Shown here in pieces: positions 2,530 through 44,794 of a DNA stretch of 64,000 bases. The DNA is taken from sequence record NZ_CP123987.1; one strand, 5' to 3'. The translations under genes and the position numbers were made by a program. The first letter of the stretch is position 1. Each line of letters starts with the position of its first letter. The stretch comes from a plasmid. Below the pieces are notes generated by a model that saw only the letters and a list, made by a program, of their open reading frames with translations, was not told where the DNA came from and searched no databases.

Positions 2530-3340
2530 AAATCATAACCACCCGTAAAACGGGTGGTTTGCTCCACGGCTATAAGCCGTTAAGAACAGCCAGCGTCTCA
2601 AGGCGCTGGCTTTCTCTTCGTTCAAGCCAAATTGCTATGATTTCTTTGCCACCACTTTAAGTGGTATTAGTATCACTTTAACTTATTACCCTTAAAAGGG
2701 TCTGAATATTCTTTAGTTGTCAATTTATCTATCGATAAATCATGTTTTTCTTGATCTCTTATATATTTTCGAATTGTTTGTTCATTCAATCCTACTGTAC
2801 TAACATAATACCCTTCAGACCAAAAATGTCTATTTCCAAATTTGTACTTTAAATTCGCATGTCTATCAAACATCATCAATGCACTTTCCCCCTTTAAGTA
2901 TCCCATAAAACTTGATACACTCTGCTTTGGGGGAATACTTACTAAAAGATGTACATGATCTGGCATCATATGTCCTTCTATAATTTTTACTCCTTTATAT
3001 TGACATAATAACTTTATAATCTCTATTAAATCTTTTCGGTATTGATAATATATTATTTTACGTCTATACTTTGGAGTGAATACGATATGGTATTTACATA
3101 ACCATTTTGTATGGGCTAAACTATTTAGTTTATTAGCCATTTCAAATTATCTCTTTTCTTTTTTATTTTTTGGCCTGAACAACTTAATCTTAAAACCAAA
3201 AGAGTAATTTGTATATAATACTTCATTTTCCACTCGCATAGCGAGTGGTTTTTTGTTTCGTACGCTTTAGCGTACTCAACCAGGTCTAAAGACATAATAA
3301 AAATTGCTGGTAACTTATTAAAAATTACCAGCAATTGTCA
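2530..3340 (-). mobile_element. IS200/IS605-family insertion sequence (Y1 HUH transposase flanked by subterminal hairpins)
   Basis: Clusters of perfect hairpins on both sides of tnpA: 2539-2557 ccacccgtaaaacgggtgg, 2565-2580, 2587-2611, 2648-2665; and 3231-3249 ccactcgcatagcgagtgg, 3259-3276, 3304-3334. Confidence 0.75.
2673..3140 (-). CDS. tnpA: IS200/IS605 family transposase TnpA (HUH Y1)
   Basis: 155 aa with the HVHLLVSIPP (HuH) motif and overall IS200-like sequence. Confidence 0.85.
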   Translation of the reverse strand: MANKLNSLAHTKWLCKYHIVFTPKYRRKIIYYQYRKDLIEIIKLLCQYKGVKIIEGHMMPDHVHLLVSIPPKQSVSSFMGYLKGESALMMFDRHANLKYKFGNRHFWSEGYYVSTVGLNEQTIRKYIRDQEKHDLSIDKLTTKEYSDPFKGNKLK

Positions 3341-3354
3341 CATTCAAATTGTAA

Positions 3355-4860
3355 TTATTTTTTAGTATACTCTACATCGATAGTTCTAACTGTTAATCCT
3401 GTTACATCTTTTCTATATTGTGGTGTAACTAGACCTACAAGATAACTTACTACAAATGAAGTCAAGAAAGATACACTACTTGTAATGAATGGAGAAATAT
3501 TCAAGGATTGTACGTAGTATGTTAAACCAGCTGCAACAATCAAAGCAATTACAGCACTAACAGTATTTGCTTTTTCTGTAAAAATACCTGCAGCGAAAAT
3601 ACCTGCAATAAAAACACCAAATAACCCAGTTACTGCTAAGAATAAGTTCCATGTTTCTGAAGTATTACCAACTAATAAATAAATAGCAACTGCTAAACTA
3701 AATAAACCAGAAATTATAATAATCCAACGAGCTAATGCAACATCACTAACGTTCTTAAATTTATCATTAAAAAATCTTTGTTTAAAGTCAACAATGCCAC
3801 AAGAAGAGATAGCATTCAAACTAGAAGCAATAGTTGATTGAGCAGCAGCAAAAATAGCAGCAATAACTAATCCAGCAATACCAGCAGGAAGTTTGGTTAC
3901 AATGAAGTATGGTACAACTGCACTTGTATTAAATCCTTTTGGTAACATTGCTGCGTGGTTGTAGAAACTAAATAGAACTGTACCCATTCCATAAAAAATA
4001 GGAATTGTGATAAATGCTAAAATACCATTTGTCCAAAGAGATTTTTTTGTTTCTTCCATTGTTGCTGTTGTTTGATAACGTTGTACAACATCTTGACTAC
4101 CAGTGTATTGATACAAACTATTAAAGAATTGACCTGCAAATATCAAGGGTAAGAATTTGGATAAGTCACTTATTTTCATATCAAATCCAGAAATTAATTT
4201 ATGATGTGTAATTGCATCAGAAGCTACAGTAGCCCAGCCCCCATCAATATAATGTGCACCTAAAATAATAACTAATAAGGCACCACCAAGTAGTAAAATG
4301 CCTTGGATAACATCTGACCAAATAACCCCTTCAATACCACCAAGGAATGTGTAAATGATACATAATCCACCAACAAATAATGCAATGATAATTGGATTAA
4401 TATCAGAAACAGATGTAATTGCAATTATAGGTAGGTAAATAACAATAGCTACTCGAGCAATATGATAAAGCATAAATAGTAAGCTACCTAAGATTCTCAT
4501 TACTGGACCAAATCTTTCTTCTAAATATCCATAAGCTGTTGGAACTTTTAATTTTCTAAAAAATGGAACATAATATTTAACCAAAATTGGAATAATAGCA
4601 ATAATTGCTAGATTACCAATTGAGTATGCCCAGTCGTTTAAGAAAGCTTGTTCAGGAGTAGACATAAATGTTATTGCGCTTAAAGTTGTTGCATATATAC
4701 TAAATCCTGCGGCCCAAGCTGGAATTTTACCTTCGGCTGTAAAAAATGAATCTGTATTCTTACTTGCTTTTTTAGTAAAATATGCACCGACAGCTAACAT
4801 TGCTAATAAATATAGAACTAGAACAATCCAATTAAGAGTACCAAAACCTACTTTTTCCAT
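3355..4860 (-). CDS. sodium:solute symporter (SSS family), possible sialic acid transporter
   Basis: 501 aa polytopic SSS-family sequence; in the same neighbourhood as the nanK/nanA/nanE/nanR genes. Confidence 0.75.
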   Translation of the reverse strand: MEKVGFGTLNWIVLVLYLLAMLAVGAYFTKKASKNTDSFFTAEGKIPAWAAGFSIYATTLSAITFMSTPEQAFLNDWAYSIGNLAIIAIIPILVKYYVPFFRKLKVPTAYGYLEERFGPVMRILGSLLFMLYHIARVAIVIYLPIIAITSVSDINPIIIALFVGGLCIIYTFLGGIEGVIWSDVIQGILLLGGALLVIILGAHYIDGGWATVASDAITHHKLISGFDMKISDLSKFLPLIFAGQFFNSLYQYTGSQDVVQRYQTTATMEETKKSLWTNGILAFITIPIFYGMGTVLFSFYNHAAMLPKGFNTSAVVPYFIVTKLPAGIAGLVIAAIFAAAQSTIASSLNAISSCGIVDFKQRFFNDKFKNVSDVALARWIIIISGLFSLAVAIYLLVGNTSETWNLFLAVTGLFGVFIAGIFAAGIFTEKANTVSAVIALIVAAGLTYYVQSLNISPFITSSVSFLTSFVVSYLVGLVTPQYRKDVTGLTVRTIDVEYTKK

Positions 4861-4877
4861 TTTGTTTCACCTCATAA

Positions 4878-6068
4878 TTAATTAATTTGCTTCTTCGTGT
4901 AAATATCTTCTCTTTCTGTTCTTTGTATATAAAATTTTAAAATTAATGGTGCAATCAAAGTTGTAATTACAGTCACAATTATCATGGCAGTATAGTGATT
5001 CTGATCAACCACATGTGCATTCAATGCCACATTTGCTACAACTAATGCCATTTCTCCACGTGATACCATCCCTGCACCTACAACATTCGATTCATCCCAA
5101 GTTAGACCAAAAGCTTTTGCTCCAAGCCCACAACCTATTTGTTTTCCAAGAATTGCTATAATAATTAACAATATTATAAAGAAAATATCATTTTTCATTC
5201 CTTTAAAACTAATACTCAATCCAATACTTACAAAAAATACTGGTATAAATACAGCATATCCTATAGGCTCTACCTTCAGTGACAGTTTCTCTTTAAATTT
5301 CGTTTCAGAAATTGCTAGCCCTGCAAAGTACGCACCTAAAACATCACTCATTCCCATGGATACAGCTAAAGCAGCAAAACCAAAACATAAAATGATCGCT
5401 GCAGTTGTATCGTTTTCGCTTGCGTTCAATTTACTAAAAATTTCTAGAAATCTAGGAACAAACCATTTCCCTACAAAGAATGCGATTACAAAAAATAGCA
5501 TCTTTGGACCAATTAATTTTAATAATGTTATTCCCGATGCTCCATTACTTCCAACAAAACTAATACACAACCCTAATAAAATAACACAAATAATATCATC
5601 AGCTACTGCAGCACCTAGAATCATTGCACCTTCTTTACTATTCATACGATTCATCTCTCTAAGTACTTGAACTGTAATACTCACAGAAGTTGCACTTAAA
5701 ACTAATCCAATAAATAATGCGGTTTCCCAAGAAAAACCAAATACTAATGCACATAAAAGCGCTGCACTCCCAGTCGGAACAATTACACCTAATATTGCAA
5801 TTGTCACAGATGGTTTCCAATACTTCATCAACATCTGTAAATTTCCTTCCAAGCCCGCGATAAACATTAGGATAATTACTCCTAGTTCTGAAAAATAGTG
5901 AACCAAATTAGTTGGGGTTAAAATCCCAAGCACTGCAGGTCCCGCAATAATTCCTACTAATAATTCTCCGATAACACTCGGAAAATTGAATACATTAGAC
6001 ACATGAGCCCCTATTTTGGTCAAAAGTAGTATTATAAATAATTCAATGAGATACGTCATTGATAACAC
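4878..6068 (-). CDS. cation:proton antiporter (CPA2/NapA-like)
   Basis: 396 aa polytopic membrane protein with Na+/H+ exchanger family features. Confidence 0.65.
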   Translation of the reverse strand: MLSMTYLIELFIILLLTKIGAHVSNVFNFPSVIGELLVGIIAGPAVLGILTPTNLVHYFSELGVIILMFIAGLEGNLQMLMKYWKPSVTIAILGVIVPTGSAALLCALVFGFSWETALFIGLVLSATSVSITVQVLREMNRMNSKEGAMILGAAVADDIICVILLGLCISFVGSNGASGITLLKLIGPKMLFFVIAFFVGKWFVPRFLEIFSKLNASENDTTAAIILCFGFAALAVSMGMSDVLGAYFAGLAISETKFKEKLSLKVEPIGYAVFIPVFFVSIGLSISFKGMKNDIFFIILLIIIAILGKQIGCGLGAKAFGLTWDESNVVGAGMVSRGEMALVVANVALNAHVVDQNHYTAMIIVTVITTLIAPLILKFYIQRTEREDIYTKKQIN

Positions 6069-6800
6069 CTACCGTTTCATCAGTACATCCTCTACCTTCT
6101 TCATTTCATCAATTATTTTATTCTCATCAATTCCATACTCTAGAAATACTGGTATATTTTCACCTAGTTTATTTAACATATATCTCCAATCTGTATCTCC
6201 ATTATTTAACATCATCGTATTTTTGCTTTTAATATCTTTTAAATGAAATACAGAAATATTTTCTCTCAATTCATCAAAAGCAACATGAGGGTTTTCATTT
6301 ATCCAATACCAATTTCCAGAATCAAATGTATACCCTAATTTAATGTGATTATCATTCAAATAATTAAGTGCTTTTTTCATTTCTACTAAGGAACCATTAT
6401 CATTAGGTTGATTTTCAATAGTCACATTTACAGATGTATTATTTAAAATATCATTTAATTCATTAATATCTGTATTTTTAACATTTATATGACCTAAACT
6501 GTATTTTAAGTTTGAAACATTATATTTTTCTGCTAATGCAATTTTATTTTCTATATCTTGATTGAAACCATCTGAATTAAATAATTCTTGTGGAACGGAG
6601 TAAAATAATTTCCATCTATTCTTTTCACATAAATTAGAAATTTCTTCTAATTCTTCTTCAACTCTTTCTTCATCAAAAAATTCTCCACGTACTTCAATAC
6701 TATCTATTATTTTATCTGGTAATCTTTCTAAACATTCTAACTGACTTTTACCTTTTTTTATTTCATCTTCGAAAACAGCTGTGTTTATAGATAAATGCAT
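6069..6800 (-). CDS. sugar-phosphate isomerase/epimerase-like TIM-barrel protein
   Basis: 243 aa; weak resemblance to the xylose-isomerase-like TIM barrel family; located in the nan region. Confidence 0.4.
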   Translation of the reverse strand: MHLSINTAVFEDEIKKGKSQLECLERLPDKIIDSIEVRGEFFDEERVEEELEEISNLCEKNRWKLFYSVPQELFNSDGFNQDIENKIALAEKYNVSNLKYSLGHINVKNTDINELNDILNNTSVNVTIENQPNDNGSLVEMKKALNYLNDNHIKLGYTFDSGNWYWINENPHVAFDELRENISVFHLKDIKSKNTMMLNNGDTDWRYMLNKLGENIPVFLEYGIDENKIIDEMKKVEDVLMKR

Positions 6801-7095
6801 TTATATCCAACCGCCTTTCTTAATATTAACCCGGTGCAGTATTATATCCGAAGGTAGCACGTTTAAATAAAACGTTTTCATAAAACAACATTATTATATA
6901 AAAAGAAAATAAATATTTCAACACTTAAAAAAGATATTTATTTTCAAAACAAGGTTATAATTCTCTTATATCAGCATTTTATAGAAAGTAAATTTTTTTA
7001 TTTTGATAAAAGTAAAAATATAATATCTGTAAAATAAAGAAAGCTAAGAATCACGTTAAATTAGTGTAATTCTTAGCTTTCATCTTTATTTACTT

Positions 7096-7533
7096 CTAAA
7101 AATTAAATTCTGGAAACCATATTTTAATTTCACGTTGCGCACTTTCTACACTATCTGATGTATGCACCACGTTTTGGATATGTTTATAAGGCCATTCTCG
7201 CCCATAATCTCCACGGATAGTTCCAAATTCAGCTTCTCCTGGATTTGTATTACCAGCCATTCGATGCATTGCTTTAGTAATATTTGTACCTGCCGCAACT
7301 ATCCCCACAATTGGACCTGATTGCATGTAAGATAACATATCTGGAAAATATGGTTTGTCAACCTTATCATTGTAATGTTGTTTTAATTGATCCTCTGTAG
7401 CTGATACAACCTTTAAAGCTTCAATTTCATATCCTTTGCGCTCAATTCTAGTGATAATTTCACCTACATGACGACTTGAAACTCCATCTGGTTTAACTAA
7501 GATAAGTGTTCTTTCTTCTGCCAAATTTGTCAC
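7096..7533 (-). CDS. ndk: nucleoside diphosphate kinase
   Basis: 145 aa; LILVKPDGV…NVVHTSDS motifs of NDK with the active-site His. Confidence 0.85.
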   Translation of the reverse strand: MTNLAEERTLILVKPDGVSSRHVGEIITRIERKGYEIEALKVVSATEDQLKQHYNDKVDKPYFPDMLSYMQSGPIVGIVAAGTNITKAMHRMAGNTNPGEAEFGTIRGDYGREWPYKHIQNVVHTSDSVESAQREIKIWFPEFNF

Positions 7534-7617
7534 TTCTCTTTCTCTTCTCGTTAAATTTACCTATCATTACCTATAAGTATAATCTAACACTAATGAATAC
7601 TCAACAAATTTTTTTAT

Positions 7618-8481
7618 TTATATATTTACTAGCTCAGCAATTCCACCTAAAAGTTGTGCTTTATTTGCTAAATGACTAACCTTAATTTGTGTCTGTATCA
7701 ATCCTTTAGGAACATATTCTTCAAGATGTCTTTCTACTAAATCAACTAGATATTCTCCTTGTTTAGCAACTGCTCCACCTAATAAGATAAGTTCAGGATC
7801 AAATAACAAAATAATTTCTGCCACACCTCGTGCTACTTCATCTCCCCAATCTTCAATAATCTTTTCAAATCTTTCATCACCAGCTTTAGCTTTTTCAAAA
7901 GCATCAATTACAGATATATCAAATTTTTTCAAGTAAGCTTCTAGACTTAAAGTAGCTGCTCTTTTCTGATAGTCTGTTTTAGTATTTTTATCATAAAGAG
8001 TATAACCAATAGAATTAGCACCAGCATGAGCACCAGAAAATAATTTCCCTTCATAAAAATATGCACCACCTATACCAGTACCTAACGCTATACAATAAAC
8101 ATTGTCACTGCCTTTCGCACCACCAGCTAAACGTTCTCCTAATAAAGCAGCATCTACATCATTAACTACTGATACTGGTAATCCAGATAATTCCTCTAAC
8201 TCCTTCTTTATAGGTGTTCCTATATATCCTGGGATTGTTGGACCAGCATATTGAATTTCACCATTTTTACCAACAATACCAGCTGTACTAACACCAATTC
8301 CTAGTAAAGTGTAAGAATTCATCATTTCTTCAGTAATTTTCTTTAGGCTTTTTAAAATATGACCATCTTTATTTTCTAAAGTTGGACAACTACTACTTTC
8401 GATAATATTTAATTCAGAATCAATCAAGCCATATTTAATGGTAGTACCACCTACATCAAAACCTAAATAATATTTTTTCAT
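7618..8481 (-). CDS. nanK: ROK-family sugar kinase, probable N-acetylmannosamine kinase
   Basis: 287 aa; DVGGT N-terminal ATP motif and ROK signature; divergent from nanA. Confidence 0.7.
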   Translation of the reverse strand: MKKYYLGFDVGGTTIKYGLIDSELNIIESSSCPTLENKDGHILKSLKKITEEMMNSYTLLGIGVSTAGIVGKNGEIQYAGPTIPGYIGTPIKKELEELSGLPVSVVNDVDAALLGERLAGGAKGSDNVYCIALGTGIGGAYFYEGKLFSGAHAGANSIGYTLYDKNTKTDYQKRAATLSLEAYLKKFDISVIDAFEKAKAGDERFEKIIEDWGDEVARGVAEIILLFDPELILLGGAVAKQGEYLVDLVERHLEEYVPKGLIQTQIKVSHLANKAQLLGGIAELVNI

Positions 8482-8670
8482 TTGATTACCTTCTTTCTAA
8501 AGGAATTTATTATAACCGCTTTCAATATAGCATAAGATACTTTTTTTCTCAAATTAATTTTATAAAAATAATTATCACATTGATATAACAACGTTTACAG
8601 CTAATTATGATAATTATTATCTAAATATGTTGTTGAAATAATTTTTTTCGTATTGTATAGTATAAACGAA

Positions 8671-8686
8671 GGTAGTTAAAGCGTTA
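8671..8686 (+). promoter_or_regulatory. candidate cre (CcpA) operator upstream of nanA
   Basis: TTAAAGCGTTATCA matches the cre consensus TGWAANCGNTNWCA at 13 of 14 positions; about 30 bp upstream of the nanA ATG. Confidence 0.35.
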
Positions 8687-9010
8687 TCAAAAATGAATTG
8701 TGAGGTAATAGATTATGAAAAAACTTTATTCTGCTCTTATGACTGCATTTAACGAAGATGGTTCTGTTAACTTAGACGGTGTTCGTGAAATGGTTCGTTA
8801 CAATATTGATGTAAATCATATCGATGGACTTTATGTAGGTGGTAGTACTGGTGAAACTTTCATGCTTAGTACAGAAGAAAAAAAGAGTATCTTCAAGGTT
8901 GCTTATGAAGAAGCTGCTGGCAAAACACATCTTATTGTAAACACACTATAGTGTGACATTACAGATAAAAAGGCCCTCAAAATCACATTTTCCTAGTGAT
9001 TTTGAGGGCC

Positions 9011-10537
9011 TTACTTTGTACAAATTTCTTTAACTTTAGAATTCCATGGCAAATAAGCTCCAACCTTGACATTTTCTCGTTTTTCTAATAGTGAGAAAAT
9101 GTAGTTGAAATACTTGAATATATCTAAGCCATTCAACTTGGCTGTTTGAACTAAACTATAAAATATTGCACTAGCTTTGGCACCATCAACGCTTCTCGCA
9201 AACAATGAGTTCTTACGAACTAAGGTAGATAGCCTAATCACTTGTTCTATCGGATTGTTTGATAGAGGGAGTTCGCCAATTTTATATATATTTTCTAATC
9301 TAGGCTGAAATTTTTTGGCATATTCAACAGCTTTCTTTAATTTACTGCTAGGATTAGGGATAGTATCCAGAAAATCGTAGAATTCATCAACATATTTTTT
9401 CAAATGAAGCTTCCGCTTCAGTACTTTTTCTTCTGCATTTTGATACTCAAGCTTCTTTTCTTCTTTAAAAATACGATTTAATAATTCTACCGCTCTTACT
9501 GCATATGATCCTCTTCCTTGTTTTAAAGATTTGACTATTTCCACAAAATGTCTGCGTATATGCACCAAACAGCTACCATATGTAATTTGTGGATACATTT
9601 CACTGCTATAGGCATTATAACCATCACACATAATTGCTCCAGTGTAAGCTCCAACCAGATTAGAAATATTTTCTTGCTTTCGGCTACTAGAGTAATTAAA
9701 CACCACTATTTGATGATTTGAAAATTCTTCTGTCGTTCTCATTACCCAAAAATACGATTTACTTCGATTCTTTTCTTCCAACACCTGAAAAGGAGTTTCG
9801 TCCATATGAATAACCGGATTTTTCAATAAAATCTTAGTAAGTTCATCGTGAACCGTTTCTAACTGTTCACTCAATTTAATGATGGCACGTGCCATATGCT
9901 TTGTATCTATTGGTAAGCCAATATGTTTAAAATATATTGCTTGTCTATTCAATGGTACAGCCATTAAATATTTAGAAGTAACTACTTGAGCCAATACACT
10001 ACTGGAAAAATAACTATGTGGAAAAATAGGACTAGTAGGTACTTTACCGGCAACTATTTTATCGCCACCTTTTGGGTGGCAATTTTCACATTTATAGGTT
10101 TGCTGATAATGATTACGACAAAAAAGCTCAGGTTGTTTCAAGCCTACCTCTCGATAAACACATTTTTTGCCAATTAGAGTGAGTTTTTCATGACAATCAG
10201 CACAATTTTTTTGTTCAAGATCATGAACGACATCTACTTGTACTAAAGTATCAAGAAACTCAGCTCGTTGACCACGTGGTTTAACTTTTCGGTGGCAAAC
10301 TACTCTAAGCTCTACTTCAACTTCTTCATTTTCTTTAGATGAAATATCAGAATCTATATCTAATTCTTCTAATTCAGCCTCTGAAAAAAATGAAAGTTGA
10401 TTTTTATCTAATTTTTCCGTTTTTTTTCCAAAAATACGGGCATTGAGAAGCTTAATAGTTTCAGACAATTCTTCAATCTTTTTATGAAGTTGTTGATTTT
10501 CCTTTTCAAGCTCCTCTATTCTTTTGTCTTTATCCAT
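9011..10537 (-). CDS. tnpC: IS66 family transposase TnpC
   Basis: 508 aa with a leucine-zipper N-terminus, a Cys-rich Zn-finger region and a DDE domain. Confidence 0.85.
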   Translation of the reverse strand: MDKDKRIEELEKENQQLHKKIEELSETIKLLNARIFGKKTEKLDKNQLSFFSEAELEELDIDSDISSKENEEVEVELRVVCHRKVKPRGQRAEFLDTLVQVDVVHDLEQKNCADCHEKLTLIGKKCVYREVGLKQPELFCRNHYQQTYKCENCHPKGGDKIVAGKVPTSPIFPHSYFSSSVLAQVVTSKYLMAVPLNRQAIYFKHIGLPIDTKHMARAIIKLSEQLETVHDELTKILLKNPVIHMDETPFQVLEEKNRSKSYFWVMRTTEEFSNHQIVVFNYSSSRKQENISNLVGAYTGAIMCDGYNAYSSEMYPQITYGSCLVHIRRHFVEIVKSLKQGRGSYAVRAVELLNRIFKEEKKLEYQNAEEKVLKRKLHLKKYVDEFYDFLDTIPNPSSKLKKAVEYAKKFQPRLENIYKIGELPLSNNPIEQVIRLSTLVRKNSLFARSVDGAKASAIFYSLVQTAKLNGLDIFKYFNYIFSLLEKRENVKVGAYLPWNSKVKEICTK

Positions 10538-10611
10538 AGTTCGCCACCTCCTCTTTTAAGATTATGCTTAAAAGCATACCAGTAGGCAGCGTTTTTAGTA
10601 AAGAAAAATTT

Positions 10612-10968
10612 TTAATAAAATGCACCTTTTGGTGCTAAATGTACTTTGGGTTGTGGTAAAGGATTAAGTCCACTTAAAAGTAAGTCAATTTGTTGGTTAT
10701 CTAATTCTTTAACTTCTTCACTAGTTTTCGGCCAAGTTAAATTACCATTTTCGAAACGTTTATAGAGTAGTATAAAACCTTCACCATCCCAATAAAGAGC
10801 TTTAAATCTGTCGTTTCTTCGACCACAGAACAAGAAGATTGAATCATTATAAAGATTCATACCAAAATTATCGGCAATTAAAATTGCCAGTGTATCGATT
10901 CCTTTACGTAAATCAGTGTTGCCACAAACAATATATACATGTTTAGGAGAGTGATAATTAACTAACAT
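10612..10968 (-). CDS. tnpB: IS66 family accessory protein TnpB (Orf2)
   Basis: 118 aa, typical IS66 Orf2. Confidence 0.8.
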   Translation of the reverse strand: MLVNYHSPKHVYIVCGNTDLRKGIDTLAILIADNFGMNLYNDSIFLFCGRRNDRFKALYWDGEGFILLYKRFENGNLTWPKTSEEVKELDNQQIDLLLSGLNPLPQPKVHLAPKGAFY

Positions 10969-11146
10969 ATTTCTTTATCAACTCCCAGACGTCATTCATT
11001 ACTTCAGTATCAACTCCGTGACACAACAAAATTTTCACCTTATCAAATTTAATTTCAGCATCTAAATTCAATTTGGTTGTTTTAATTTTAGTTGCTGTTT
11101 TCCGTTTTTTAGTTGGTTTTACTTCAACAATTTCAGTTTCTTCCAT
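10958..11146 (-). CDS. IS66 family Orf1 (TnpA, small HTH protein)
   Basis: Probable start at MEETEIVEV with an AGGAGG RBS; the upstream part of the track ORF lies inside the terminal IR. Confidence 0.6.
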   Translation of the reverse strand: MEETEIVEVKPTKKRKTATKIKTTKLNLDAEIKFDKVKILLCHGVDTEVMNDVWELIKKYVS

Positions 11147-11904
11147 TGTATAAAAAATCCTCCTATACTTTTTATGATAATAGTATAGGGGGATTTCAAA
11201 TTTTTTCATATTCAGCTCATTATAAAGTACTTACATCTTATTGCTCAAGTAGGGTCTTTGAATTTAAATGAAGCAAAAGAATTAGCTAAATATGTGACTG
11301 ATTTAGGTTACCCTATGATTTCTGCTGTTACACCTTTCTATTATAATTTCTCATTTGAACAAATTAAGAATTATTATAATTCAATTCTTGAAGGTGTAGA
11401 TAATAAACTTATTATTTATTCTATTCCAGCTTTAACAGGTGTAGCATTATCTCTAGATCAATTTGCTGAATTGTTTGAAAATCCAAAAATTGTAGGTATT
11501 AAATATACTAATGCCGATTTCTATCTCCTAGAACGTGTTCGTAATCGTTTCCCAGATAAGTTAATTCTTTCAGGTTTTGACGAAATGCTATTACCTGCTC
11601 TTGCATTGGACGTTGATGGTGCAATTGGTTCAACATTTAACTTAAACGCTCCTCGTGTTAAAGAAGAAATTGCAGCTTTCGAGGCTGGAGATATAGAAAA
11701 AGCTCGTGAACTTCAAACATTAAGTAATGACTATATTACTGATCTTTTAAATAATGATTTATATCCAACTATTAAGTTAGTATTTGAAAAAATTGGTGTT
11801 CATGCTGGCTACTGCAAAGAACCTATGAGCAAGCCAACTCCTGAAATGGAAGCTGGAGCTCAAAAGATTTATGAAAAATATTTCAAAGAATAGTAGAAAT
11901 TGGG

Positions 11905-12603
11905 GTGAAGATTATGGAAAATACCTTTCTTGATCAAGTTCATGGAAAATTAATTATTTCTTGTCAAGCACTTGAAGGTGAGCCTTTACATAGCTCCTTC
12001 ATTATGGCACGTATGGCACGTGCTGCTAAAATGGCTGGTGCTCCTGCAATTAGAGCTAATTCTGTCGTTGATATTCAAGCTATTCAAGACGAGACTGGAC
12101 TTCCAATTATTGGAATTATAAAAAAAGATTATCCAGATTCTGACGTATATATTACTCCAACTCTTAAAGAAATGCGTCAAGTTGCTGCTACTGGAGTTGA
12201 AGTTGTTGCTTGCCAAGTAACAGGACAAGCACGTCCTAATGGAGAAAAATTGGAAGAAATCATTCCTCAATTCCGCGAAGAATTTCCTAATACTCTTCTT
12301 ATGGCTGATACTGGTGATCTCAATGATGTCAAAGAAGCTAATAGACTTGGTTTCGATATTATCGGTACGACTATGCATGGCTATACCCCTACTACTAAAG
12401 GTATGAATATTGCTGATAATGATTTTGAATATTTAAAAGAAGTTCTAAAAGTTGCTGAGCATCCAGTTATTGCTGAAGGTAAAATTGATCTCCCCCAAAA
12501 AGCTAAACGTGTTTTAGAATTAGGTGTACATGCCTTAGTAGTTGGTGGCGCGATTACTCGTCCACTAGAAATTGCAAATAAATTTATGGACGCAATTAAG
12601 TAA
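11905..12603 (+). CDS. nanE: N-acetylmannosamine-6-phosphate 2-epimerase
   Basis: 232 aa NanE family sequence immediately downstream of nanA. Confidence 0.8.
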   Translation: MKIMENTFLDQVHGKLIISCQALEGEPLHSSFIMARMARAAKMAGAPAIRANSVVDIQAIQDETGLPIIGIIKKDYPDSDVYITPTLKEMRQVAATGVEVVACQVTGQARPNGEKLEEIIPQFREEFPNTLLMADTGDLNDVKEANRLGFDIIGTTMHGYTPTTKGMNIADNDFEYLKEVLKVAEHPVIAEGKIDLPQKAKRVLELGVHALVVGGAITRPLEIANKFMDAIK

Positions 12604-12639
12604 AAAATTGTGCTATACTTGAGATAAATTATATCAGGG

Positions 12640-13473
12640 GTGATGTTGATGAATTTGCTTAATAATATAGAAGCAATTTTCTCCACACTTTCTCGCCAAG
12701 AACGTAAAGTAGCTTTAAAAGTTCTTCAAAATCCTCAAGAAGTACAATCTATGAATATTACTAAATTAGCTAAAAAAGCGGGTGTTAGTAATGCTACTAT
12801 CACTCGCTTTGTGCGTAGAATGGAATGTTCTGATTTTCATGATTTTAAATTAAAGCTCGCTATATCTGCTGCTAGCTCTCCTGAGGTTCCAGTTTCTTCT
12901 GAAAGCGATTCTATGGGAGATAAAGTTTACGAATTCTATCAAAAAGTACTTCAAGGTACTTGGAAGCAACTAGATACTGACACTATTCATAATATTGTCC
13001 ATGCTATTACTAAGGCTCGTCGTGTCTACGTTTACGGTTTAGGAAGTTCAGGTTATACTGCACAAGAATTCACTCAACGACTAATTCGTATGGGAATTGC
13101 TGCTTTTTGTACAGTCGATAGCCATATGATGTTTATAGATAGTACTATTGTAAACTCTGATGATGTTATCATCGCCATTAGTCAATCTGGTAATACTGAT
13201 GATGTAAATGTTGCTTGTTCTTTAGCAAAACAAAAAGGAACAAAAATTATCAGCATCACTGGATTTTATCAAAGTCCACTTATCGAACTCTCTACTTGGA
13301 GTGTAGTTGTTAAAAACAGTAATTTTGTTGATAATACTCGCTTTATTAATTCTCAGCTAGCGATCGTTTATGTTATCGATATTATTACAATGGAACTGAT
13401 GGAAAAATCTGAATATAGTTCTACTATGAATAAGACCGTTGAATTAATCATGGATCGAAAATTATCTAAATAA
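12640..13473 (+). CDS. RpiR/MurR-family transcriptional regulator (HTH + SIS domain), probable nan regulator
   Basis: 277 aa with an N-terminal HTH_6 and a C-terminal SIS domain. Confidence 0.75.
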   Translation: MMLMNLLNNIEAIFSTLSRQERKVALKVLQNPQEVQSMNITKLAKKAGVSNATITRFVRRMECSDFHDFKLKLAISAASSPEVPVSSESDSMGDKVYEFYQKVLQGTWKQLDTDTIHNIVHAITKARRVYVYGLGSSGYTAQEFTQRLIRMGIAAFCTVDSHMMFIDSTIVNSDDVIIAISQSGNTDDVNVACSLAKQKGTKIISITGFYQSPLIELSTWSVVVKNSNFVDNTRFINSQLAIVYVIDIITMELMEKSEYSSTMNKTVELIMDRKLSK

Positions 13474-13524
13474 CAACACCAATTGGGGTTTCTCAGTTGG
13501 TGTTTTTTGAAAGAAGGCATCGCT

Positions 13525-14314: not shown

Positions 14315-15802
14315 ATGAATGATAAAAATAAAAAAATAGGCTTATTTAGCTTAATCATGATGATTTTTTCAAGTATTTTTGGTTTTGCTAACATGCCAGT
14401 TGCTTTTTTGCAAATGGGATATGCTAGTATCATCTGGTATATTTTTGCAGCCATCTTTTTCTTTCTGCCAGTATCTATGATGCTTGCAGAATATGGCTCA
14501 ACTTTTAAAGATGAGCAAGGTGGTATTTATGCTTGGTTAAGTAATACTATTGGTGAAAAGCTTGCATTTATCGGAACTTTCATCTGGCTTTCTAGTTGGA
14601 TAGTTTGGTTAATAAATATTTCATCAAAAGTATTTATCCCCTTCTCTGCCTTATTATTTGGTAAAGATATGACACAAACTTGGGCTTTTGGTCCTTTCAG
14701 TGCTACCCAAGTAGTTGGAATTTTAGCTATTCTTTGGATTATTTTCGTTACTTTCTTTGCAAGTCGTGGTGCAGATGTTATTTCTAAGGTTTCTAGTATT
14801 GGCGGAACTTTCGTAACTGGAATGATTTTTGTATTTTTAATTGCTACTTTCATTTCTTTGTTTGTTACTCATGGACACTTCGAACAACCAATTACAGCAT
14901 CTGCATTTGTTAAATCACCTAACCCTGCTTTTACTAACCCGGTTGCTACTCTATCTTTTGTTGTATATGCTATTTTTGCTTATGCTGGCATGGAATCTTT
15001 AGGTGGAATGATTGATAATATTGAGGAGCCTGAAAAAACTTTTCCTAAGGGTTTATTGATTTCTTCAATATTAATTGCAGTTGCTTACTCCTTCATGATT
15101 CTTTTATGGGGTGTCAGCGTAAATTGGAAAGATGTTCTTTCTAGTGACTCTGTTAACCTAGGAAATATCACTTATATAATGATGCAACATCTTGGTATCT
15201 ACCTCGGACATAGCTTAGGATTATCTGCAAGTGTAAGTAATTTAATCGGAAATATTTTTATCCGTTTTGTTGGTTTAGGAATGTTTTTAGCTTATGTTGG
15301 TTCATTCTTTATTTTGATTTATTCTCCAATTAAATCATTTATCTTAGGATCTAAACACTTATGGCCAGAAAAAATGACTAAACTTAACAAGCACGGCATT
15401 CCAGAATTTGCAATGTGGATGCAGGCTCTACTTGTATGTATCTTGATATTCTTAATTTCATTTGGCGGTGGTCAAGCTAAGAGTTTCTACACGATTTTAA
15501 CTGATATGTCTAACATATCAACTTCGTTTCCTTACTTATTCTTAGTTGGTGCCTTCCCTATATTTAAGAAAAAAGGATTTAAGCAACCATTTATTGCTTA
15601 TAAAAATCATACTTGGACAAAAATTATTACCTATATATGTTTCTCAATTATCTTATTTGGTATCATTTTCACTTGCGTTGATCCATTTATACAAGGTGAT
15701 TGGGTAACCGGATTTTGGACTGTTATTGGACCAATTTTCTTTGGTTCTCTAGCTCTAGGAATTTATACTCGAGCAACAAAGAAAAATAAGAATAAAAATT
15801 AA
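14315..15802 (+). CDS. APC-superfamily amino acid permease
   Basis: 495 aa, 12-TM APC transporter features. Confidence 0.75.
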   Translation: MNDKNKKIGLFSLIMMIFSSIFGFANMPVAFLQMGYASIIWYIFAAIFFFLPVSMMLAEYGSTFKDEQGGIYAWLSNTIGEKLAFIGTFIWLSSWIVWLINISSKVFIPFSALLFGKDMTQTWAFGPFSATQVVGILAILWIIFVTFFASRGADVISKVSSIGGTFVTGMIFVFLIATFISLFVTHGHFEQPITASAFVKSPNPAFTNPVATLSFVVYAIFAYAGMESLGGMIDNIEEPEKTFPKGLLISSILIAVAYSFMILLWGVSVNWKDVLSSDSVNLGNITYIMMQHLGIYLGHSLGLSASVSNLIGNIFIRFVGLGMFLAYVGSFFILIYSPIKSFILGSKHLWPEKMTKLNKHGIPEFAMWMQALLVCILIFLISFGGGQAKSFYTILTDMSNISTSFPYLFLVGAFPIFKKKGFKQPFIAYKNHTWTKIITYICFSIILFGIIFTCVDPFIQGDWVTGFWTVIGPIFFGSLALGIYTRATKKNKNKN

Positions 15803-15982: not shown

Positions 15983-16252
15983 CTACCAACTTGCTTTATG
16001 GACACCTGGTATTTTTCCTTGATGTGCCAACTCTCTAAAATTAATACGTGACATTTTAAACTTACGCATATATGCACGTGGACGACCATCAATTTCATCT
16101 CTATTTTTTAATCGTATAGGGTTAGAATCTTTAGGTAATTTTCGCAAGCTCTCATAATCATGATTTACTTTCAACTGTTTTCTTATCTCTGCATATTTAG
16201 CAACTAACATTTGCTGTTTTCTATATTTAGCAATTTTTGATTTTTTAGCCAA
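15983..16252 (-). CDS. rpsN: 30S ribosomal protein S14, Zn-independent (C-) paralog
   Basis: 89 aa S14 without CxxC motifs; a Zur-box-like palindrome lies in its promoter. Confidence 0.85.
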
Positions 16253-16271
16253 AATTATACCTCATTTCATT

Positions 16272-16326
16272 TAAATAGTAATTATTACTTTTTTAAATGA
16301 TAACAATTACTATTTAAAAAGTCAAT
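16272..16326. promoter_or_regulatory. candidate Zur boxes in the rpsN / GTPase divergent promoter
   Basis: AAATAGTAATTATTACTTTT (core GTAATnATTAC identical to the Firmicutes Zur-box core) and a second degenerate copy AAATGATAACAATTACTATTT. Confidence 0.5.
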
Positions 16327-16453
16327 AAAAATTATCATATTCAGAGTAAAGTTAAATAATTTGATTACTTTTTTTCAATTTTCTACAATTATCTTATTAA
16401 CTACTCTAAGATTAGAAGGGAGAACGGCATTTTTTTTATTGCCTATTAATTCA

Positions 16454-18373
16454 TTGAAATATATTGTTACTGGAATTATTGCCAATGTTGATGCAGGAAA
16501 AACTACTCTTTCTGAAGCATTACTATATCAAACGGGAAATCTACTCAATTTAGGTCGCGTTGATAACGGCAATACTTTCTTAGATACTGACCAACTAGAA
16601 AAAAAGCGTGGTATTACTATTTTTTCACACCAAGCAAATTTAGAATATAATGATCTTTCACTGACAATTTTAGATACTCCAGGACACGTTGATTTTGTTA
16701 CTCAAACCGAACAAGTTTTAAGTGTTCTTGACTATGCTATATTAGTTATTTCTGCTACTGATGGAATTACTAGTCACACTAGATCTCTTTGGAATTTGCT
16801 AAATCATTACCATATTCCTGTATTTATTTTTGTTAATAAAATTGATATCAGCACTAATAAGGCCTCACAGATTTTATCTCAATTAAAAAGTGAATTAGAT
16901 GAATCAATTATTGATTTTTCTTCTGATAATATGATTGAAGATATTGCAACGTGCAATGAATCATTATTTGAAGAGTATTTGCAAATTAATACCATATCTG
17001 ATGAAAAAATTCTATCACTAATCTCTGATAGAGTTATTTTCCCATGCTATTTTGGCTCTGCTTTAAAGTTAGATGGTATTGATAAATTTTTACAAGGATT
17101 CAATCAATGGACAAAAAAGTTACACTATCCGAATAATTTCCAAGCCAAAGTATTTAAAATTTCTCACAACGATAAAGGTGAACGTCTAACCTGGCTTCGT
17201 ATTCTAGGCGGCTCTCTAAAAACTAGAGATGAATTATTACCTGAACAAAAAATTAGTCAAATTAGAGTATATAATGGTGAAAAGTTTTCAACTTACCCAA
17301 CTGTTACTGCTGGTCAAGTTTGTACAATTCCTGGGCTAGTAAATACCTATCCTGGTTTAAGCATTGGTAAAAAACAAGTAGATACAATTCCAATCGTTAC
17401 ACCTGTTTTAAGTTATGCTCTTGACCTCAATGGCAATGATATTCAAGCTTGTTTAAAAGCTCTTCATGAATTAGAAGATGAAGATCCTAAGTTACATGTT
17501 ACTTGGTCTGAACATCTCAAAGAAATTAGTGTACAAATTATGGGAGAAATTCAGTTAGAAATCCTAGAACAAATACTCCTTGATCGATATAATTTAAACG
17601 TCACTTTTACTAAAGGAAATATTTTATATAAAGAAACTATCACTAATTCTATTGAGGGAGTTGGTCACTTCGAACCACTTCGTCATTATTCAGAAGTACA
17701 TTTATTATTAGAACCTGGAGAAAGAGGCAGTGGTCTCCAGTTCGAAAATCAATGTAGTCTAGAAGTCTTAAATAAAAATTGGCAACATCAAATTATATAC
17801 AATCTCAAGTCTAAAGAGCATCTAGGTGTATTAACTGGTTCCCCTCTTACTGATGTAAAAATTACCCTTTTAGGCGGGAAAGCTAGCAATGTACATACAG
17901 TTGGTGGAGATTTTCGTCAAGCATGTAGTCGTGCAGTTCGACAAGGTTTAATGATGCTCAGAGAAAATAATAATTGCCAACTCTTAGAACCTTGGTATCG
18001 TTTCAGACTAAAAGTTGATCGTACTCAAATTGGTCGTGCAATCAATGATATTCAACGAATGCATGGTACCTTGGATGAACAACAAGTTGAGGGGATACTA
18101 ACTGGAATTGCTCCTGTTTCAGAAATGTACAATTATGCCACCAATGTACGCGCATATACTCATGGGAATGGCACACTAGAATTGGAAATTGCTGGTTATT
18201 ATCCTTGTCATAATTCGACAGATATAGTATCTCAACAAAATTATGATCCTGTATCAGATTTAGAAAATACTCCACAATCTGTTTTCTGTGCTCATGGAGC
18301 TGGATATACAGTTGACTGGAAAGATGTACCTACAACTATGCATTGCGAGTATTTTTGGAATGGGATGAATTAG
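16454..18373 (+). CDS. EF-G/TetM-like translational GTPase (ribosomal-protection-type protein)
   Basis: G1-G4 motifs (AHVDAGKTTL, DTPGH, NKID); the domain order parallels Tet(M)/Tet(O) and EF-G; start uncertain (TTG 16439 or 16454; the track ORF begins at 16361). Confidence 0.7.
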   Translation: MKYIVTGIIANVDAGKTTLSEALLYQTGNLLNLGRVDNGNTFLDTDQLEKKRGITIFSHQANLEYNDLSLTILDTPGHVDFVTQTEQVLSVLDYAILVISATDGITSHTRSLWNLLNHYHIPVFIFVNKIDISTNKASQILSQLKSELDESIIDFSSDNMIEDIATCNESLFEEYLQINTISDEKILSLISDRVIFPCYFGSALKLDGIDKFLQGFNQWTKKLHYPNNFQAKVFKISHNDKGERLTWLRILGGSLKTRDELLPEQKISQIRVYNGEKFSTYPTVTAGQVCTIPGLVNTYPGLSIGKKQVDTIPIVTPVLSYALDLNGNDIQACLKALHELEDEDPKLHVTWSEHLKEISVQIMGEIQLEILEQILLDRYNLNVTFTKGNILYKETITNSIEGVGHFEPLRHYSEVHLLLEPGERGSGLQFENQCSLEVLNKNWQHQIIYNLKSKEHLGVLTGSPLTDVKITLLGGKASNVHTVGGDFRQACSRAVRQGLMMLRENNNCQLLEPWYRFRLKVDRTQIGRAINDIQRMHGTLDEQQVEGILTGIAPVSEMYNYATNVRAYTHGNGTLELEIAGYYPCHNSTDIVSQQNYDPVSDLENTPQSVFCAHGAGYTVDWKDVPTTMHCEYFWNGMN

Positions 18374-25851: not shown

Positions 25852-26616
25852 ATGTCTAAAGAACCTGTTGTCCAACAGGAAATTGTAACAGCCTTCCCTA
25901 ATACCAAGGAAGTTCGTTACGATAATGAATTAAACCGTATTCCTATTGGGTTTATGAATGAAAGTGAACAGAATATTTTCTTCGCTATCCTAAGTCAGGT
26001 TAAAGAAACTAGTGAAAGAAAGACCAAATTATCTTTTACTCAAATTCGTGAATTAGCAAGTTTTCAGAAGACTTCAAACAAAGAGTTAATCAAGTCTCTT
26101 GATAATATGACAACAAAACTAGCCTCTTTAAATGTTCGAATCCATAACCAACAACAAATTATTAAGTTTACCCTATTCCCAACTTTTCAAATAGATGGGG
26201 ATCAGCAAACTCTAACTGTTGCTGTTAACGAAGATTTTCGCTATATCGTTAATGATTTAGCCAAAGGATTCGTAACTAACTTTGACATTGAAGAATTTAC
26301 TTCTATCAAATCTAAATATGCGAAAACAGCTTTTCGTTTAGCTAGAGAACACGAAAATGAAGTCTTTGATGTTGTATTAAAGGATTTTAAAGAACTTTTC
26401 TCTATTCCTAAATCTTATCGACCAACGGATATCAATAGATTAATTTTAACAAAAGTTAGTAAAATCCTACAGGAGTATTTTACTGTTTTTGAAATTACAC
26501 CTGTACAAGATGAAAAAGGTAAAGCTCATCGAATTATAGCTTACCGTTTTAATATTGGAAAACGTATTTTAAGAAATCTTGACGAACCACGTCAAATTTC
26601 ATTATTGGATGACTAA
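25852..26616 (+). CDS. rep: Rep_3-family plasmid replication initiator
   Basis: 254 aa; N-terminal NELNRIPIGFMNESEQNIFFAILSQV matches Rep_3 (pfam01051-type) initiators; an iteron array lies upstream. Confidence 0.8.
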   Translation: MSKEPVVQQEIVTAFPNTKEVRYDNELNRIPIGFMNESEQNIFFAILSQVKETSERKTKLSFTQIRELASFQKTSNKELIKSLDNMTTKLASLNVRIHNQQQIIKFTLFPTFQIDGDQQTLTVAVNEDFRYIVNDLAKGFVTNFDIEEFTSIKSKYAKTAFRLAREHENEVFDVVLKDFKELFSIPKSYRPTDINRLILTKVSKILQEYFTVFEITPVQDEKGKAHRIIAYRFNIGKRILRNLDEPRQISLLDD

Positions 26617-26900: not shown

Positions 26901-27893
26901 ATGAAAAGTCTTACATCTCGTGCATTTTTACCAATAAACACTGATTTATTCAACAATCCTAAGTATCAAGAATTAAGTTGCGATGCTATGGTTTTATATT
27001 CACTATATTCTCAAAGAAAAGAAGTATCTGCTTTTCATTCTCAAACCGGTAATGACACTTTTACAGATTCAGAAGGTATTTTTATCTATTTTTCTAATGA
27101 CGAAGCTTCAAAAATCCTTCGTATGTCTGTAAGAAAAATCTCTACTTTACGCTCTCAACTTATTGACTGTGGCCTAATAAGTGTTGTTCGTCATGGTCTT
27201 AAGAATTTTAAGATCTATGTAAATACACCAGAAACAACTCCGGCTGAAACAGATCTTGTTTTGCCTTGGGCCAATTTTGACTTTGAAAAGCCTATTAAAT
27301 CCGTTCCTGCAAATTCTGCTAGTACGAAGTCGCAAAAATTGCCTATAAATCAATCTAACAATAATCAAACCAAATTATTATTATCAAAAGAATCAAATGA
27401 ATCAGTACCACAAAATCAGAGTAATACTCCGGTTACACCTAAAAAATCCGAAAAAGATGGTTTAAATGATCTATCTTTAGATTCAATTATTACAAGACTT
27501 AAAGATACATTTAGTCTTCCTGTAGTTTCTAGATTGAAAGTATTAGCAAACAATTCATATACAAAATTAAAATGGTTTAGTGACACTATTTTTAAAGCTA
27601 AAAGTCAAGTAACTAAAAAATTATTATCTAATGCTAAATGGCTATATAATCCTGCTAGTCAAGAAGCAACTCATTTTGAATCCAACGAGTTGTTAAAACG
27701 AGGATTGGAATCTGCTTTACTTCAGATTGCTGAAATAGTCTATAAGGGTAAAGAAAAAGTACAAAATGAAGCCAAGTTTATTTATGTTTACTTACGTAAT
27801 TTTATGGCAAATGCAGTAAAACAATATTTGATAGACAATTATGAATTAACTGAGGATGATGAAATAGATTTGAATTTATTATTAAGATTCTAA
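26901..27893 (+). CDS. RepA_N-family (Firmicutes plasmid) replication protein
   Basis: N-terminal …NPKYQELSCDAMVLYSLYSQR…IFIYFSNDEASKILRMSVRKISTLRSQLIDCGLISV… matches the RepA_N wHTH domain; ATG 26901 with a GGAAGGAAG RBS. Confidence 0.65.
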   Translation: MKSLTSRAFLPINTDLFNNPKYQELSCDAMVLYSLYSQRKEVSAFHSQTGNDTFTDSEGIFIYFSNDEASKILRMSVRKISTLRSQLIDCGLISVVRHGLKNFKIYVNTPETTPAETDLVLPWANFDFEKPIKSVPANSASTKSQKLPINQSNNNQTKLLLSKESNESVPQNQSNTPVTPKKSEKDGLNDLSLDSIITRLKDTFSLPVVSRLKVLANNSYTKLKWFSDTIFKAKSQVTKKLLSNAKWLYNPASQEATHFESNELLKRGLESALLQIAEIVYKGKEKVQNEAKFIYVYLRNFMANAVKQYLIDNYELTEDDEIDLNLLLRF

Positions 27894-39417: not shown

Positions 39418-40746
39418 ATGAAGGTTATGCGGGAAATTGTTGTTGGTTTAGTATTTTTATTAGGTTTTGTAATTAATTTTCATTTTGGAAATAGCAATGT
39501 TTCGGCTGATAACATTGATCGTTATATCGCTTATGTGGGGCAATCACAGGATTCATACGGAATGCCAATTTATGTACAAAATTTAAGTACAGGAAAAGTT
39601 GATGTTGCTTATTGTATAAATGAATCAAAGAAATTACCTTACTCAGCAGTATATAACAGATTTGATGCAACGCCGGAACGATTGATGGCATTAGATAATC
39701 CACTGGTAGATAGGGAGCAGTTACCAGATATTATTAAAAGAATCATATACAATGGTTATCTATTGAATGCTACTAAGTTGCAAGGAAAACTATCCGACGG
39801 TGCTTTCAGAAGACTTACTCAACTTGCAATTTGGCATTATAGTGATTCATATAATGTAAATGAAAATGAATTAACACAAGAAGAAAGAATGGTATATAAC
39901 GAATTGATACAAAGCGTCAATCCGGTACCAGTAAATCTAAACTTAAATATATATGTAAAAGATGACAGTACATATCAAGACTTGCTAGGGACAAGTTTTG
40001 GTAAATTACCTGAACACCCACAATTTAGTTCAAGTAGTTCAGTTTCAAGTAGCTCGAGTTCGAAACCTTCAAGTTCTAGTTCCTCATCAAGCATTGAATC
40101 TTCAAGTTCAAGTGTATCTAGTTCTTCGAGCTCAAGTTCTTCAAGTTCAGTAACTAAGGCTGAAAGTACTTCGAGTTCTTCTTCAGTAAGTTCAAGCAGT
40201 TCTGTTTCTAGTAGCGTACCCCAGATTGAAACTTCAACTGTTAGTTCAAGTAGTTCGAGCTTAAGTAGTTCAAGCTCAGTAACAAAAGCTGAAAGTACTT
40301 CATCCAGTTCAAGTAGCTCAAGTGAACAACAAGAATCAAGTTCCTCGTCTAGTATTCCAAGTTCAAGTAGCTCAAGTTCTGTGGAAAGTTCTAATGTAAG
40401 TTCAACTTCCAGTGTAAGTAGTAGCTCAAGTAGTGAGCAAACCTCCAAAGTCTCAAGTGAACAAAGCAGCTCATCTTCTTCAGAAATTAGTATTGTACCA
40501 TCTGTTGCGACATCTACAAGTAGTTCGAGTTCTACTAATAGTGAAAAGGTGATTCCTGTTGAGACAAGTTCAAGTTCATCAAAGAAAGAATTAGTAAGTA
40601 AGAAAGTTAATTCATCGGTCAAAGTAGATAAGAAAAAAGATTTACCGCAGACAGGTGAGAAGCATAATGAAGTCTTATGGCTAAGCATACTAGGGTGTAT
40701 AGTTCTTGCTGGTTCGCTTTGGATATTTGAAAGAAAATACAAATAA
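39418..40746 (+). CDS. LPXTG-anchored surface protein with an N-terminal thioester (TQXA) adhesin domain and a serine-rich stalk
   Basis: Signal peptide; Cys in VAYCINE and Gln in TQLAIWHY match the thioester-domain (TED) Cys–Gln pair; ~190-aa Ser-rich region; LPQTGE + TM + KRKYK sorting signal. Confidence 0.75.
   Translation: MKVMREIVVGLVFLLGFVINFHFGNSNVSADNIDRYIAYVGQSQDSYGMPIYVQNLSTGKVDVAYCINESKKLPYSAVYNRFDATPERLMALDNPLVDREQLPDIIKRIIYNGYLLNATKLQGKLSDGAFRRLTQLAIWHYSDSYNVNENELTQEERMVYNELIQSVNPVPVNLNLNIYVKDDSTYQDLLGTSFGKLPEHPQFSSSSSVSSSSSSKPSSSSSSSSIESSSSSVSSSSSSSSSSSVTKAESTSSSSSVSSSSSVSSSVPQIETSTVSSSSSSLSSSSSVTKAESTSSSSSSSSEQQESSSSSSIPSSSSSSSVESSNVSSTSSVSSSSSSEQTSKVSSEQSSSSSSEISIVPSVATSTSSSSSTNSEKVIPVETSSSSSKKELVSKKVNSSVKVDKKKDLPQTGEKHNEVLWLSILGCIVLAGSLWIFERKYK
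40020..40560 (+). repeat. serine-codon tandem-repeat region inside the adhesin gene
   Basis: Reiterated AGTTCAAGTAGCTCAAGT-type units. Confidence 0.8.
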
Positions 40747-43086: not shown

Positions 43087-43160
43087 AAATTTTTCTTTAC
43101 TAAAAACGCTGCCTACTGGTATGCTTTTAAGCATAATCTTAAAAGAGGAGGTGGCGAACT

Positions 43161-44687: not shown

Positions 44688-44794
44688 GGCCCTCAAAATC
44701 ACTAGGAAAATGTGATTTTGAGGGCCTTTTTATCTGTAATGTCACACTATAGTGTGTTTACGTTTGAGATATGCGATTCTCAAACTTTTTTTGT

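Follow-up and report, generated by a model that had tools for sequence, protein, structure and literature searches.

Ligilactobacillus salivarius carries a cluster of nan genes for sialic acid catabolism that was described, with many transposases nearby, in 2009 (PMC2693436, Almagro-Moreno & Boyd), and a variant that includes a major facilitator superfamily (MFS) transporter, NanG, and an oxidoreductase was described in 2021 (PMC8461474, Severi et al.). A module consisting of a sodium:solute symporter (SSS), an antiporter and a TIM-barrel protein is the one known from pMP1046A as variable region R8 (PMC4165912). Here we analyze a stretch of 64000 nucleotides from sequence record NZ_CP123987.1 (the window), part of a repA-type megaplasmid of this gut bacterium, in which the nan cluster has its N-acetylneuraminate lyase gene, nanA, split by an insertion sequence (IS) of the IS66 family. 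With a probability of about 0.9 we interpret this as a recent insertional knockout of nanA in the megaplasmid nan locus.

The nan cluster of UCC118 plasmid pMP118 has in common with the window the nanK / nanA-nanE-RpiR core, at 94-100% DNA identity, and its location on a repA-type megaplasmid, but differs in that nanA is interrupted in the window. The transporter genes also differ: UCC118 and CECT 5713 carry the MFS transporter (NanG), an oxidoreductase and YhcH, whereas the window carries an SSS, a CPA2 antiporter and a TIM-barrel protein. The nan locus of Staphylococcus aureus, which is reportedly arranged nanE, nanR, nanK, nanA, nanT and has an RpiR-type NanR, shares with the window an RpiR-family regulator and an SSS-type transporter, and the closest solved relative of NanK (6q26) is presumably the S. 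aureus N-acetylmannosamine kinase, although the gene order and operon structure of that locus are unlike those seen here.

The IS66 family includes IS66 of Agrobacterium Ti plasmids and IS679 of Escherichia coli. Like members of this family, the element in nanA encodes TnpC, a DDE transposase that bears IS66 domains, and has a TnpB_IS66 gene just upstream of it; a small overlapping open reading frame (ORF) takes the place of tnpA, the target duplications are 8 bp long and both ends open with GTAA. It differs in that its first ORF matches no TnpA family, in having short and imperfect terminal repeats (12/17) that read GTAAAC/GTAAGT where the canonical form is GTAAGCG, and in coming from a low-GC lactobacillus, most members described so far being from proteobacteria. 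The features of the family are summarized in PMC11946415 and PMC6778807, with an 8-bp target duplication as a hallmark (PMC6778807; PMC11946415) and terminal inverted repeats of 20-30 bp opening with GTAAGCG (PMC11946415).

The initial annotation had described an exact 2298-bp element with an 8-bp target-site duplication that splits nanA after codon 74, and this is correct base for base (Table 1). The final native codon before the IS is ATT at 8934-8936, and past the junction the nanA frame continues for four IS-encoded residues (VNTL) to a stop at 8949-8951, giving a product of 78 residues. In-silico deletion of the IS together with one copy of the repeat yields an in-frame nanA ORF of 290 codons, and the rejoined halves have the junction sequence of the intact gene in sister plasmids, in keeping with the proposal that precise excision would restore the gene.

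Table 1. Coordinates of the features of the nan locus, the insertion and its second copy in the window
Feature	Position	Strand	Remarks
SiaT-like SSS	3355-4860	-	PDB 5nv9 E=1.4e-118, residues 5-444
CPA2 cation:proton antiporter	4878-6059	-	TIGR00932 247 bits vs 238.3 cut-off; Prokaryotic Genome Annotation Pipeline (PGAP) annotation of near-identical plasmid
Xylose-isomerase-like TIM-barrel protein	6069-6800	-	PF01261 3.2e-08; annotated 'TIM barrel protein'
ndk, nucleoside-diphosphate kinase	7096-7533	-	NF001908 160.9 bits vs 155 cut-off
nanK, ROK-family kinase	7618-8481	-	Divergent from nanA; PF00480 3.5e-37
nanK-nanA intergenic region, 233 bp	8482-8714		Promoter-like hexamers and three cre-like sites
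nanA 5' fragment, codons 1-74	8715-8936	+	
Left target-site duplication ATCTTATT	8929-8936		
IS66-family insertion sequence, 2298 bp	8937-11234	-	Genes antisense to nanA
Hairpin, 17-bp stem, tnpC-distal IS end	8970-9012		Candidate bidirectional terminator
tnpC, IS66-family DDE transposase, 508 residues	9011-10537	-	PF03050 4.4e-74; NF033517
tnpB, IS66 accessory protein, 118 residues	10612-10968	-	PF05717 3.9e-33; NF033819
Small ORF in tnpA position	10958-11146	-	62 residues in public genomes; at most 83 residues from ATG at 11209
Right target-site duplication ATCTTATT	11235-11242		
nanA 3' fragment, codons 75-290 and stop	11243-11893	+	
nanE, N-acetylmannosamine-6-phosphate 2-epimerase	11914-12603	+	PF04131 5.1e-63; NF002231; PDB 5zkn 1.9e-70
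RpiR/MurR-family regulator (HTH_6 and SIS), putative NanR	12649-13473	+	Profile matches and annotation of related plasmid
Hairpin and U run after nanR	13475-13508	+	ViennaRNA -18.0 kcal/mol, 13-bp stem, then UUUUUUG
Second IS copy, inverted, 100% identical	42464-44761	+	Duplication GTTTGAGA at 42456-42463 and 44762-44769

The exact length of the element is backed by the second copy in the window, which has an 8-bp duplication of its own and occupies a site that is empty in plasmid pR1 of strain Ren. In other L. salivarius genomes we examined nine more copies, of which eight lie in chromosome CP116812.1 and the remaining one in a metagenome-assembled genome. Seven of them share the 2298-bp sequence without a mismatch, one carries a single mismatch and one is 2299 bp long. 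Eight of the nine are flanked by perfect 8-bp duplications, each different, and the ninth (L006) by ACTAATTT/GCTAATTT, which is one base off, such that perfect duplications accompany 10 of the 11 copies examined. The second copy and the nine others, with their matched duplications, show that this is a real, active, multi-copy IS of L. salivarius with the boundaries as first proposed. In an assembly collection, 3639 indexed blocks contain the identical TnpC protein, and most of the contigs are 2-5 kb long, as expected of a collapsed repeat.

An exact multi-copy repeat, present twice in identical form within the window, is also a classic source of misjoins, and a repeated IS contig could have been misplaced into a nanA gene that is really intact. 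However, a misjoin would not create the exact 8-bp duplication found at both junctions. The 78-residue truncated product is moreover present in one other dataset, a separate short-read assembly (Logan, SRR24294555) that may derive from the same strain; its 5.7-kb contig matches the window at 100% identity across 5248 bp that take in the left junction, and stops after 26 bases of the IS. An assembly artefact is therefore extremely improbable, and we reject it on the strength of the matched duplications around each IS copy.

The assignment to the IS66 family holds up, as both TnpC and TnpB match above curated cut-offs and the target duplications are 8 bp. TnpC scores 295.6 bits with the NF033517 equivalog (cut-off 180) and its LZ_Tnp_IS66 domain is above cut-off; its zf-IS66 (23.3 vs 27.3 bits) and IS66 C-terminal (25.9 vs 30) domains are below theirs. 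TnpB scores 103.9 bits with NF033819 (cut-off 50), and 74 nt separate its gene from tnpC, which follows on the same strand. The ORF in the tnpA position overlaps the start of tnpB by 11 nt and has no family match in Pfam or NCBIfam, even at E-values of 1 to 10. The two ends start GTAAACAC... and GTAAGTAC..., and agreement at 12 of the first 17 positions arises in random pairs of windows with P ~2.5e-4; judged by this comparison, they look like a shorter and more degenerate version of the canonical GTAAGCG-type repeats (PMC11946415). PGAP labels the element as IS66 family in public genomes, and a literature search for a name or a prior description of this L. salivarius IS found none that is specific.

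When the IS end was compared with GTDB species representatives, the sole exact match was to Scaffold63 of 'Pedobacter miscanthi RS10' (NZ_QNQU01000063.1, 2486 bp). Although it is assigned to a Bacteroidota genome, this scaffold matches the L. salivarius IS at 100% identity; it has a 56-bp internal duplication, and its flank is AT-rich and similar to insertion sites in L. salivarius. We regard it as probable assembly contamination, and it is uninformative as to a wider host range. At the right end of the copy in nanA there is a promoter-like site at 11219-11248 on the minus strand, reading into the IS. Its -10 hexamer (TATAAT) belongs to the end of the IS, and the flanking nanA DNA contributes the -35 hexamer (TTGAGC), so that the IS genes may have a hybrid promoter at this insertion.

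Alignment of the reconstructed NanA with known lyases had been set beforehand as the refuting test, and the gene survives it: its two parts align contiguously. The junction is ungapped (...kthLIAQVGS...) in the match to PDB 4woq (E=4e-115, residues 1-288), and likewise ungapped in that to 5zka (E=1.4e-106, residues 1-289). The reconstructed protein scores 426.8 bits with NF003164, the N-acetylneuraminate lyase equivalog (cut-off 281), and 356.6 with the older TIGR00683 model, which is under its cut-off of 382. It contains GSTGE at residue 43, Y133 in YSIP and K161 in GIKYT, and so has the Schiff-base lysine, the catalytic tyrosine and the GxxGE motif that mark this sub-family of class I aldolases. 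The alignment to 1f5z has an offset of +3 residues, and we take Y133 and K161 to be Y136 and K164 of the Haemophilus influenzae lyase. We conclude from these matches that the interrupted gene is nanA, predicted to encode an N-acetylneuraminate lyase of 290 residues when rejoined.

All 31 PLSDB records that match the locus are L. salivarius megaplasmids (replicon type rep_cluster_1685 in the records inspected), and all 31 have an empty site, matching the window in the flanks only with at most 76% query coverage. The filled allele is therefore one of 32 that have been sequenced. The match in pLS2102-15_1 is 7428 bp long, exactly the IS-less length, at 100.0% identity, and at the empty site two related sequences (L012 and L001) have ...AAAACACATCTTATTGCTCAAG..., in which ATCTTATT occurs once. 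The window NanE is also encoded on plasmid pR1 of L. salivarius Ren (CP011404.1), where it adjoins an intact nanA of 290 codons. Identity of the flanks to L012 is 99.98-99.99%, and the 19.4 kb of flank shared with pLS2102-15_1 contains just three mismatches (1137, 5925 and 16460), none of them in nanK, nanA, nanE or nanR. The left junction has no match in metagenome contigs of the Joint Genome Institute. The 31 empty relatives, the three flank mismatches and the finding of the allele in only one other dataset show a recent insertion that is restricted to a single strain or clonal lineage. The recent loss of sialic acid utilization proposed in the initial annotation thus stands as far as recency is concerned, with the identity of the IS copies as additional support, whereas the loss of the phenotype is a prediction.

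The same annotation had raised the alternative of a reversible switch, in which the IS excises precisely and re-inserts often to make sialic acid catabolism phase-variable. The 8-bp direct repeats are intact, so that precise excision would in principle give wild-type nanA, and the element is clearly active in the species. However, there is no sign of a hotspot, the 11 insertion sites examined being AT-rich targets unrelated to one another, and the site is filled in only one of the 32 alleles. Precise excision of DDE-type elements via short flanking repeats is rare and independent of the transposase, and such rare repeat-mediated excision of the IS from nanA is possible. In the one mechanistic study of an IS66-family member that our search found, ISDge4 is reported to transpose by copy-and-paste with retention of the donor copies, although this element is of the single-ORF ISBst12 group and the authors note that IS66 transposition mechanisms are still poorly characterized (PMC12898284). 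We therefore consider a switch highly improbable and the proposal unsupported; the unrelated targets and the single filled allele look like those of a plain insertion mutation.

In the recent knockout that we favor, an active multi-copy IS66-family element has jumped into nanA between codons 74 and 75, duplicating 8 bp and cutting NanA to 74 native plus four IS-encoded residues. The allele is likely null, because the 5' product would lack most of the TIM barrel, and any product of the 3' part would be without the first 74 residues, and with them the N-terminal TIM-barrel strands and the GSTGE substrate-binding motif. With no active lyase, N-acetylneuraminic acid (Neu5Ac) would not be cleaved to N-acetylmannosamine (ManNAc) and pyruvate.

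The insertion would probably also be polar. The gaps between nanA and nanE (20 nt) and between nanE and nanR (45 nt), and the hairpin with its U run behind nanR, suggest a nanA-nanE-nanR operon ending at that terminator. The element lies antisense in the first gene and places a very stable hairpin (-31.4 kcal/mol at minimum free energy, z = -9.45) on the sense strand of nanA, 34 nt downstream of where the gene is broken; near its right end (10884-11348) a consensus scan found no promoter-like site on the plus strand. Transcription of nanE and nanR is therefore predicted to be reduced.

Several points weigh against this interpretation. A terminator scan did not call the IS hairpin, which has a 9-nt loop and a moderately U-rich tail, and the case for polarity is built on this hairpin and the consensus promoter scan. 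A tblastn search found no other nanA within the 64-kb window, but a paralogue could be present elsewhere in the genome of the strain. The knockout phenotype and the effect on transcripts are predictions, and a literature search found no Neu5Ac growth data for L. salivarius with a SiaT-type locus.

Other strains show variation in and around the same genes. In plasmid pHN3 of CECT 5713 (L013, 4724-5579) nanA is frameshifted near codon 225, in a record that contains ambiguous bases, and the ZLp4b plasmid (L016, 1590-2474) lacks nanK and the adjoining transporter. We considered recurrent inactivation of nanA as a theme and dismissed it, since the CECT 5713 frameshift is the one other candidate and may be a sequencing error. 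The yjeM-type amino-acid permease gene downstream of the nan locus (14315-15802 in the window) is interrupted or replaced by an IS in two strains, by an IS200/IS605-TnpB element in IBB3154 (L017, ~6300-10000) and by an IS3 element in B4311 (L018, 7531-8948). The nan/yjeM neighborhood is an IS landing zone.

These strains bear on whether the hit could be silent, the locus having been already non-functional or redundant such that the insertion marks relaxed selection and causes no loss. The absence of nanK and a transporter in ZLp4b, the frameshift in CECT 5713, the swapping of transporter modules among strains and the IS hits in yjeM are all compatible with this. However, nanK, nanE, nanR and the SiaT-like gene of the window are intact and agree exactly or almost exactly with their counterparts on plasmids whose nanA is unbroken, and the ambiguous bases in the CECT 5713 record leave its frameshift doubtful. 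A silent hit is thus unlikely, and we retain the interpretation that a functional gene was knocked out.

Because the SiaT-like importer gene is intact while the lyase gene is broken, Neu5Ac might build up. Such accumulation inhibits growth in E. coli, whose nanA mutants are sensitive to sialic acid. We give little credence to the further ideas that the insertion is more than a dead-end knockout in that the strain takes up Neu5Ac and does not break it down, or that the insertion is a contingency trait restored by excision, whose loss an inversion between IS copies could make irreversible. The two inverted copies enclose 31.2 kb (11235-42463) that include both replication genes (25852-26616 and ~26901-27893), and recombination between them could invert this 31-kb segment and part the two halves of nanA. 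That such an inversion has already happened is ruled out, as each copy keeps its matched target-site duplications. The second copy has gone into the stem of what resembles a terminator hairpin (GTTTGAGA...TCTCAAAC, with a T run behind it) downstream of a small ORF starting at 42368, as seen in its flanks at 42368-42463 and 44762-44800.

The remainder of the cluster is as the initial annotation proposed: nanK, nanA, nanE and an RpiR regulator are all present by profile and structure matches. NanE scores 297.9 bits with NF002231 (cut-off 189). The best solved relative of NanK is 6q26 (1.8e-54), an entry named 'Glucokinase / N-acetylmannosamine kinase' that we take to be the S. aureus ManNAc kinase, and NanK falls below the cut-off of the NCBIfam NanK equivalog (87.7 vs 450). 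Its product is probably an N-acetylmannosamine kinase, the substrate being assigned from similarity and context.

The SSS transporter that had been counted as part of the cluster is real and SiaT-like but lies outside the interval 8715-13473 to which the cluster was assigned; its gene is three genes beyond nanK, with those for the CPA2 antiporter, the TIM-barrel protein and ndk in between. The protein scores 178.2 bits with the TIGR00813 sss superfamily model, slightly under the cut-off of 184. Its structural match, 5nv9, was deposited as 'Putative sodium:solute symporter' and is presumably SiaT of Proteus mirabilis. The equivalents of T58, S60, T63, R135 and D182 are kept, and Q82, S343 and S345 are replaced by N, T and A, respectively; we take all eight positions to have functional roles in 5nv9. 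It is probable from these similarities that this protein is the sialic acid transporter of the cluster.

The module adjoining ndk and nanK (3355-6800 in the window, 1-3016 in L013) is swapped among strains. The SSS type is found in the window, Ren, 2102-15 and JCM1046, and the module of UCC118 and CECT 5713, with its MFS transporter, Gfo/Idh/MocA oxidoreductase and YhcH, is the NanG/NanOx type, which is tied to 2,7-anhydro-Neu5Ac. Just past the SiaT-like gene is an IS200/IS605-family tnpA (2673-3140; NF033573, 155 bits), which is also present in pLS2102-15_1.

The spacer between the divergent nanK and nanA genes is conserved among related plasmids and has promoter-like hexamers on the plus strand at 8633-8661 and on the minus strand at 8552-8524. 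A cre-like site (catabolite-responsive element) had been reported before nanA; a near-match does exist there, but with one mismatch it is not a consensus cre, and no exact match to the consensus TGWNANCGNTNWCA was found in the spacer. There are three such one-mismatch sites in these 233 bp (8511-8524, 8586-8599 and 8676-8689), and 12 in all 64 kb against 6.15 expected. None of the three has the G at position 2, and the middle one is not kept in L016, L017 and L018. The -10 hexamer and the ribosome-binding site flank the one closest to nanA. Phylogenetic footprinting with seven spacer sequences could not tell functional sites from background, the sequences being too alike. These candidates could be cre boxes of degenerate sequence, or else operators for NanR.

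In sum, the split nanA is an ordinary knockout of recent origin, made by a known type of IS in a known locus, with no new mechanism. The nan locus and the IS66 annotation were already on record, and what is new is this insertion allele only. Its value is mainly in strain characterization: probiotics are being developed from L. salivarius, and its strains vary in the 'contingency' metabolism of the megaplasmid, including the use of host mucin-derived sialic acid. The insertion strain is predicted to be unable to catabolize Neu5Ac and the plasmid of strain 2102-15 should permit it, such that the two would form a natural near-isogenic pair for the role of sialic acid use in gut fitness. The locus also shows that this IS66-family element is currently active in L. 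salivarius.

Two other features of the window deserve mention. A GTPase of 670 residues encoded at 15983-18373 is annotated in sister plasmids as a ribosomal protection protein of the TetM/TetW/TetO/TetS type, and in another record merely as 'translation factor GTPase family protein'; it adjoins an rpsN (S14) paralogue and a 38-codon 'metal homeostasis' ORF. The ORF at 39418-40746 contains serine-rich tandem-like repeats (40117-40403) in 56-nt units with 61-84% identity to the reference copy, and the similarity of the window to pLS2102-15_1 stops inside this ORF, at ~40649.

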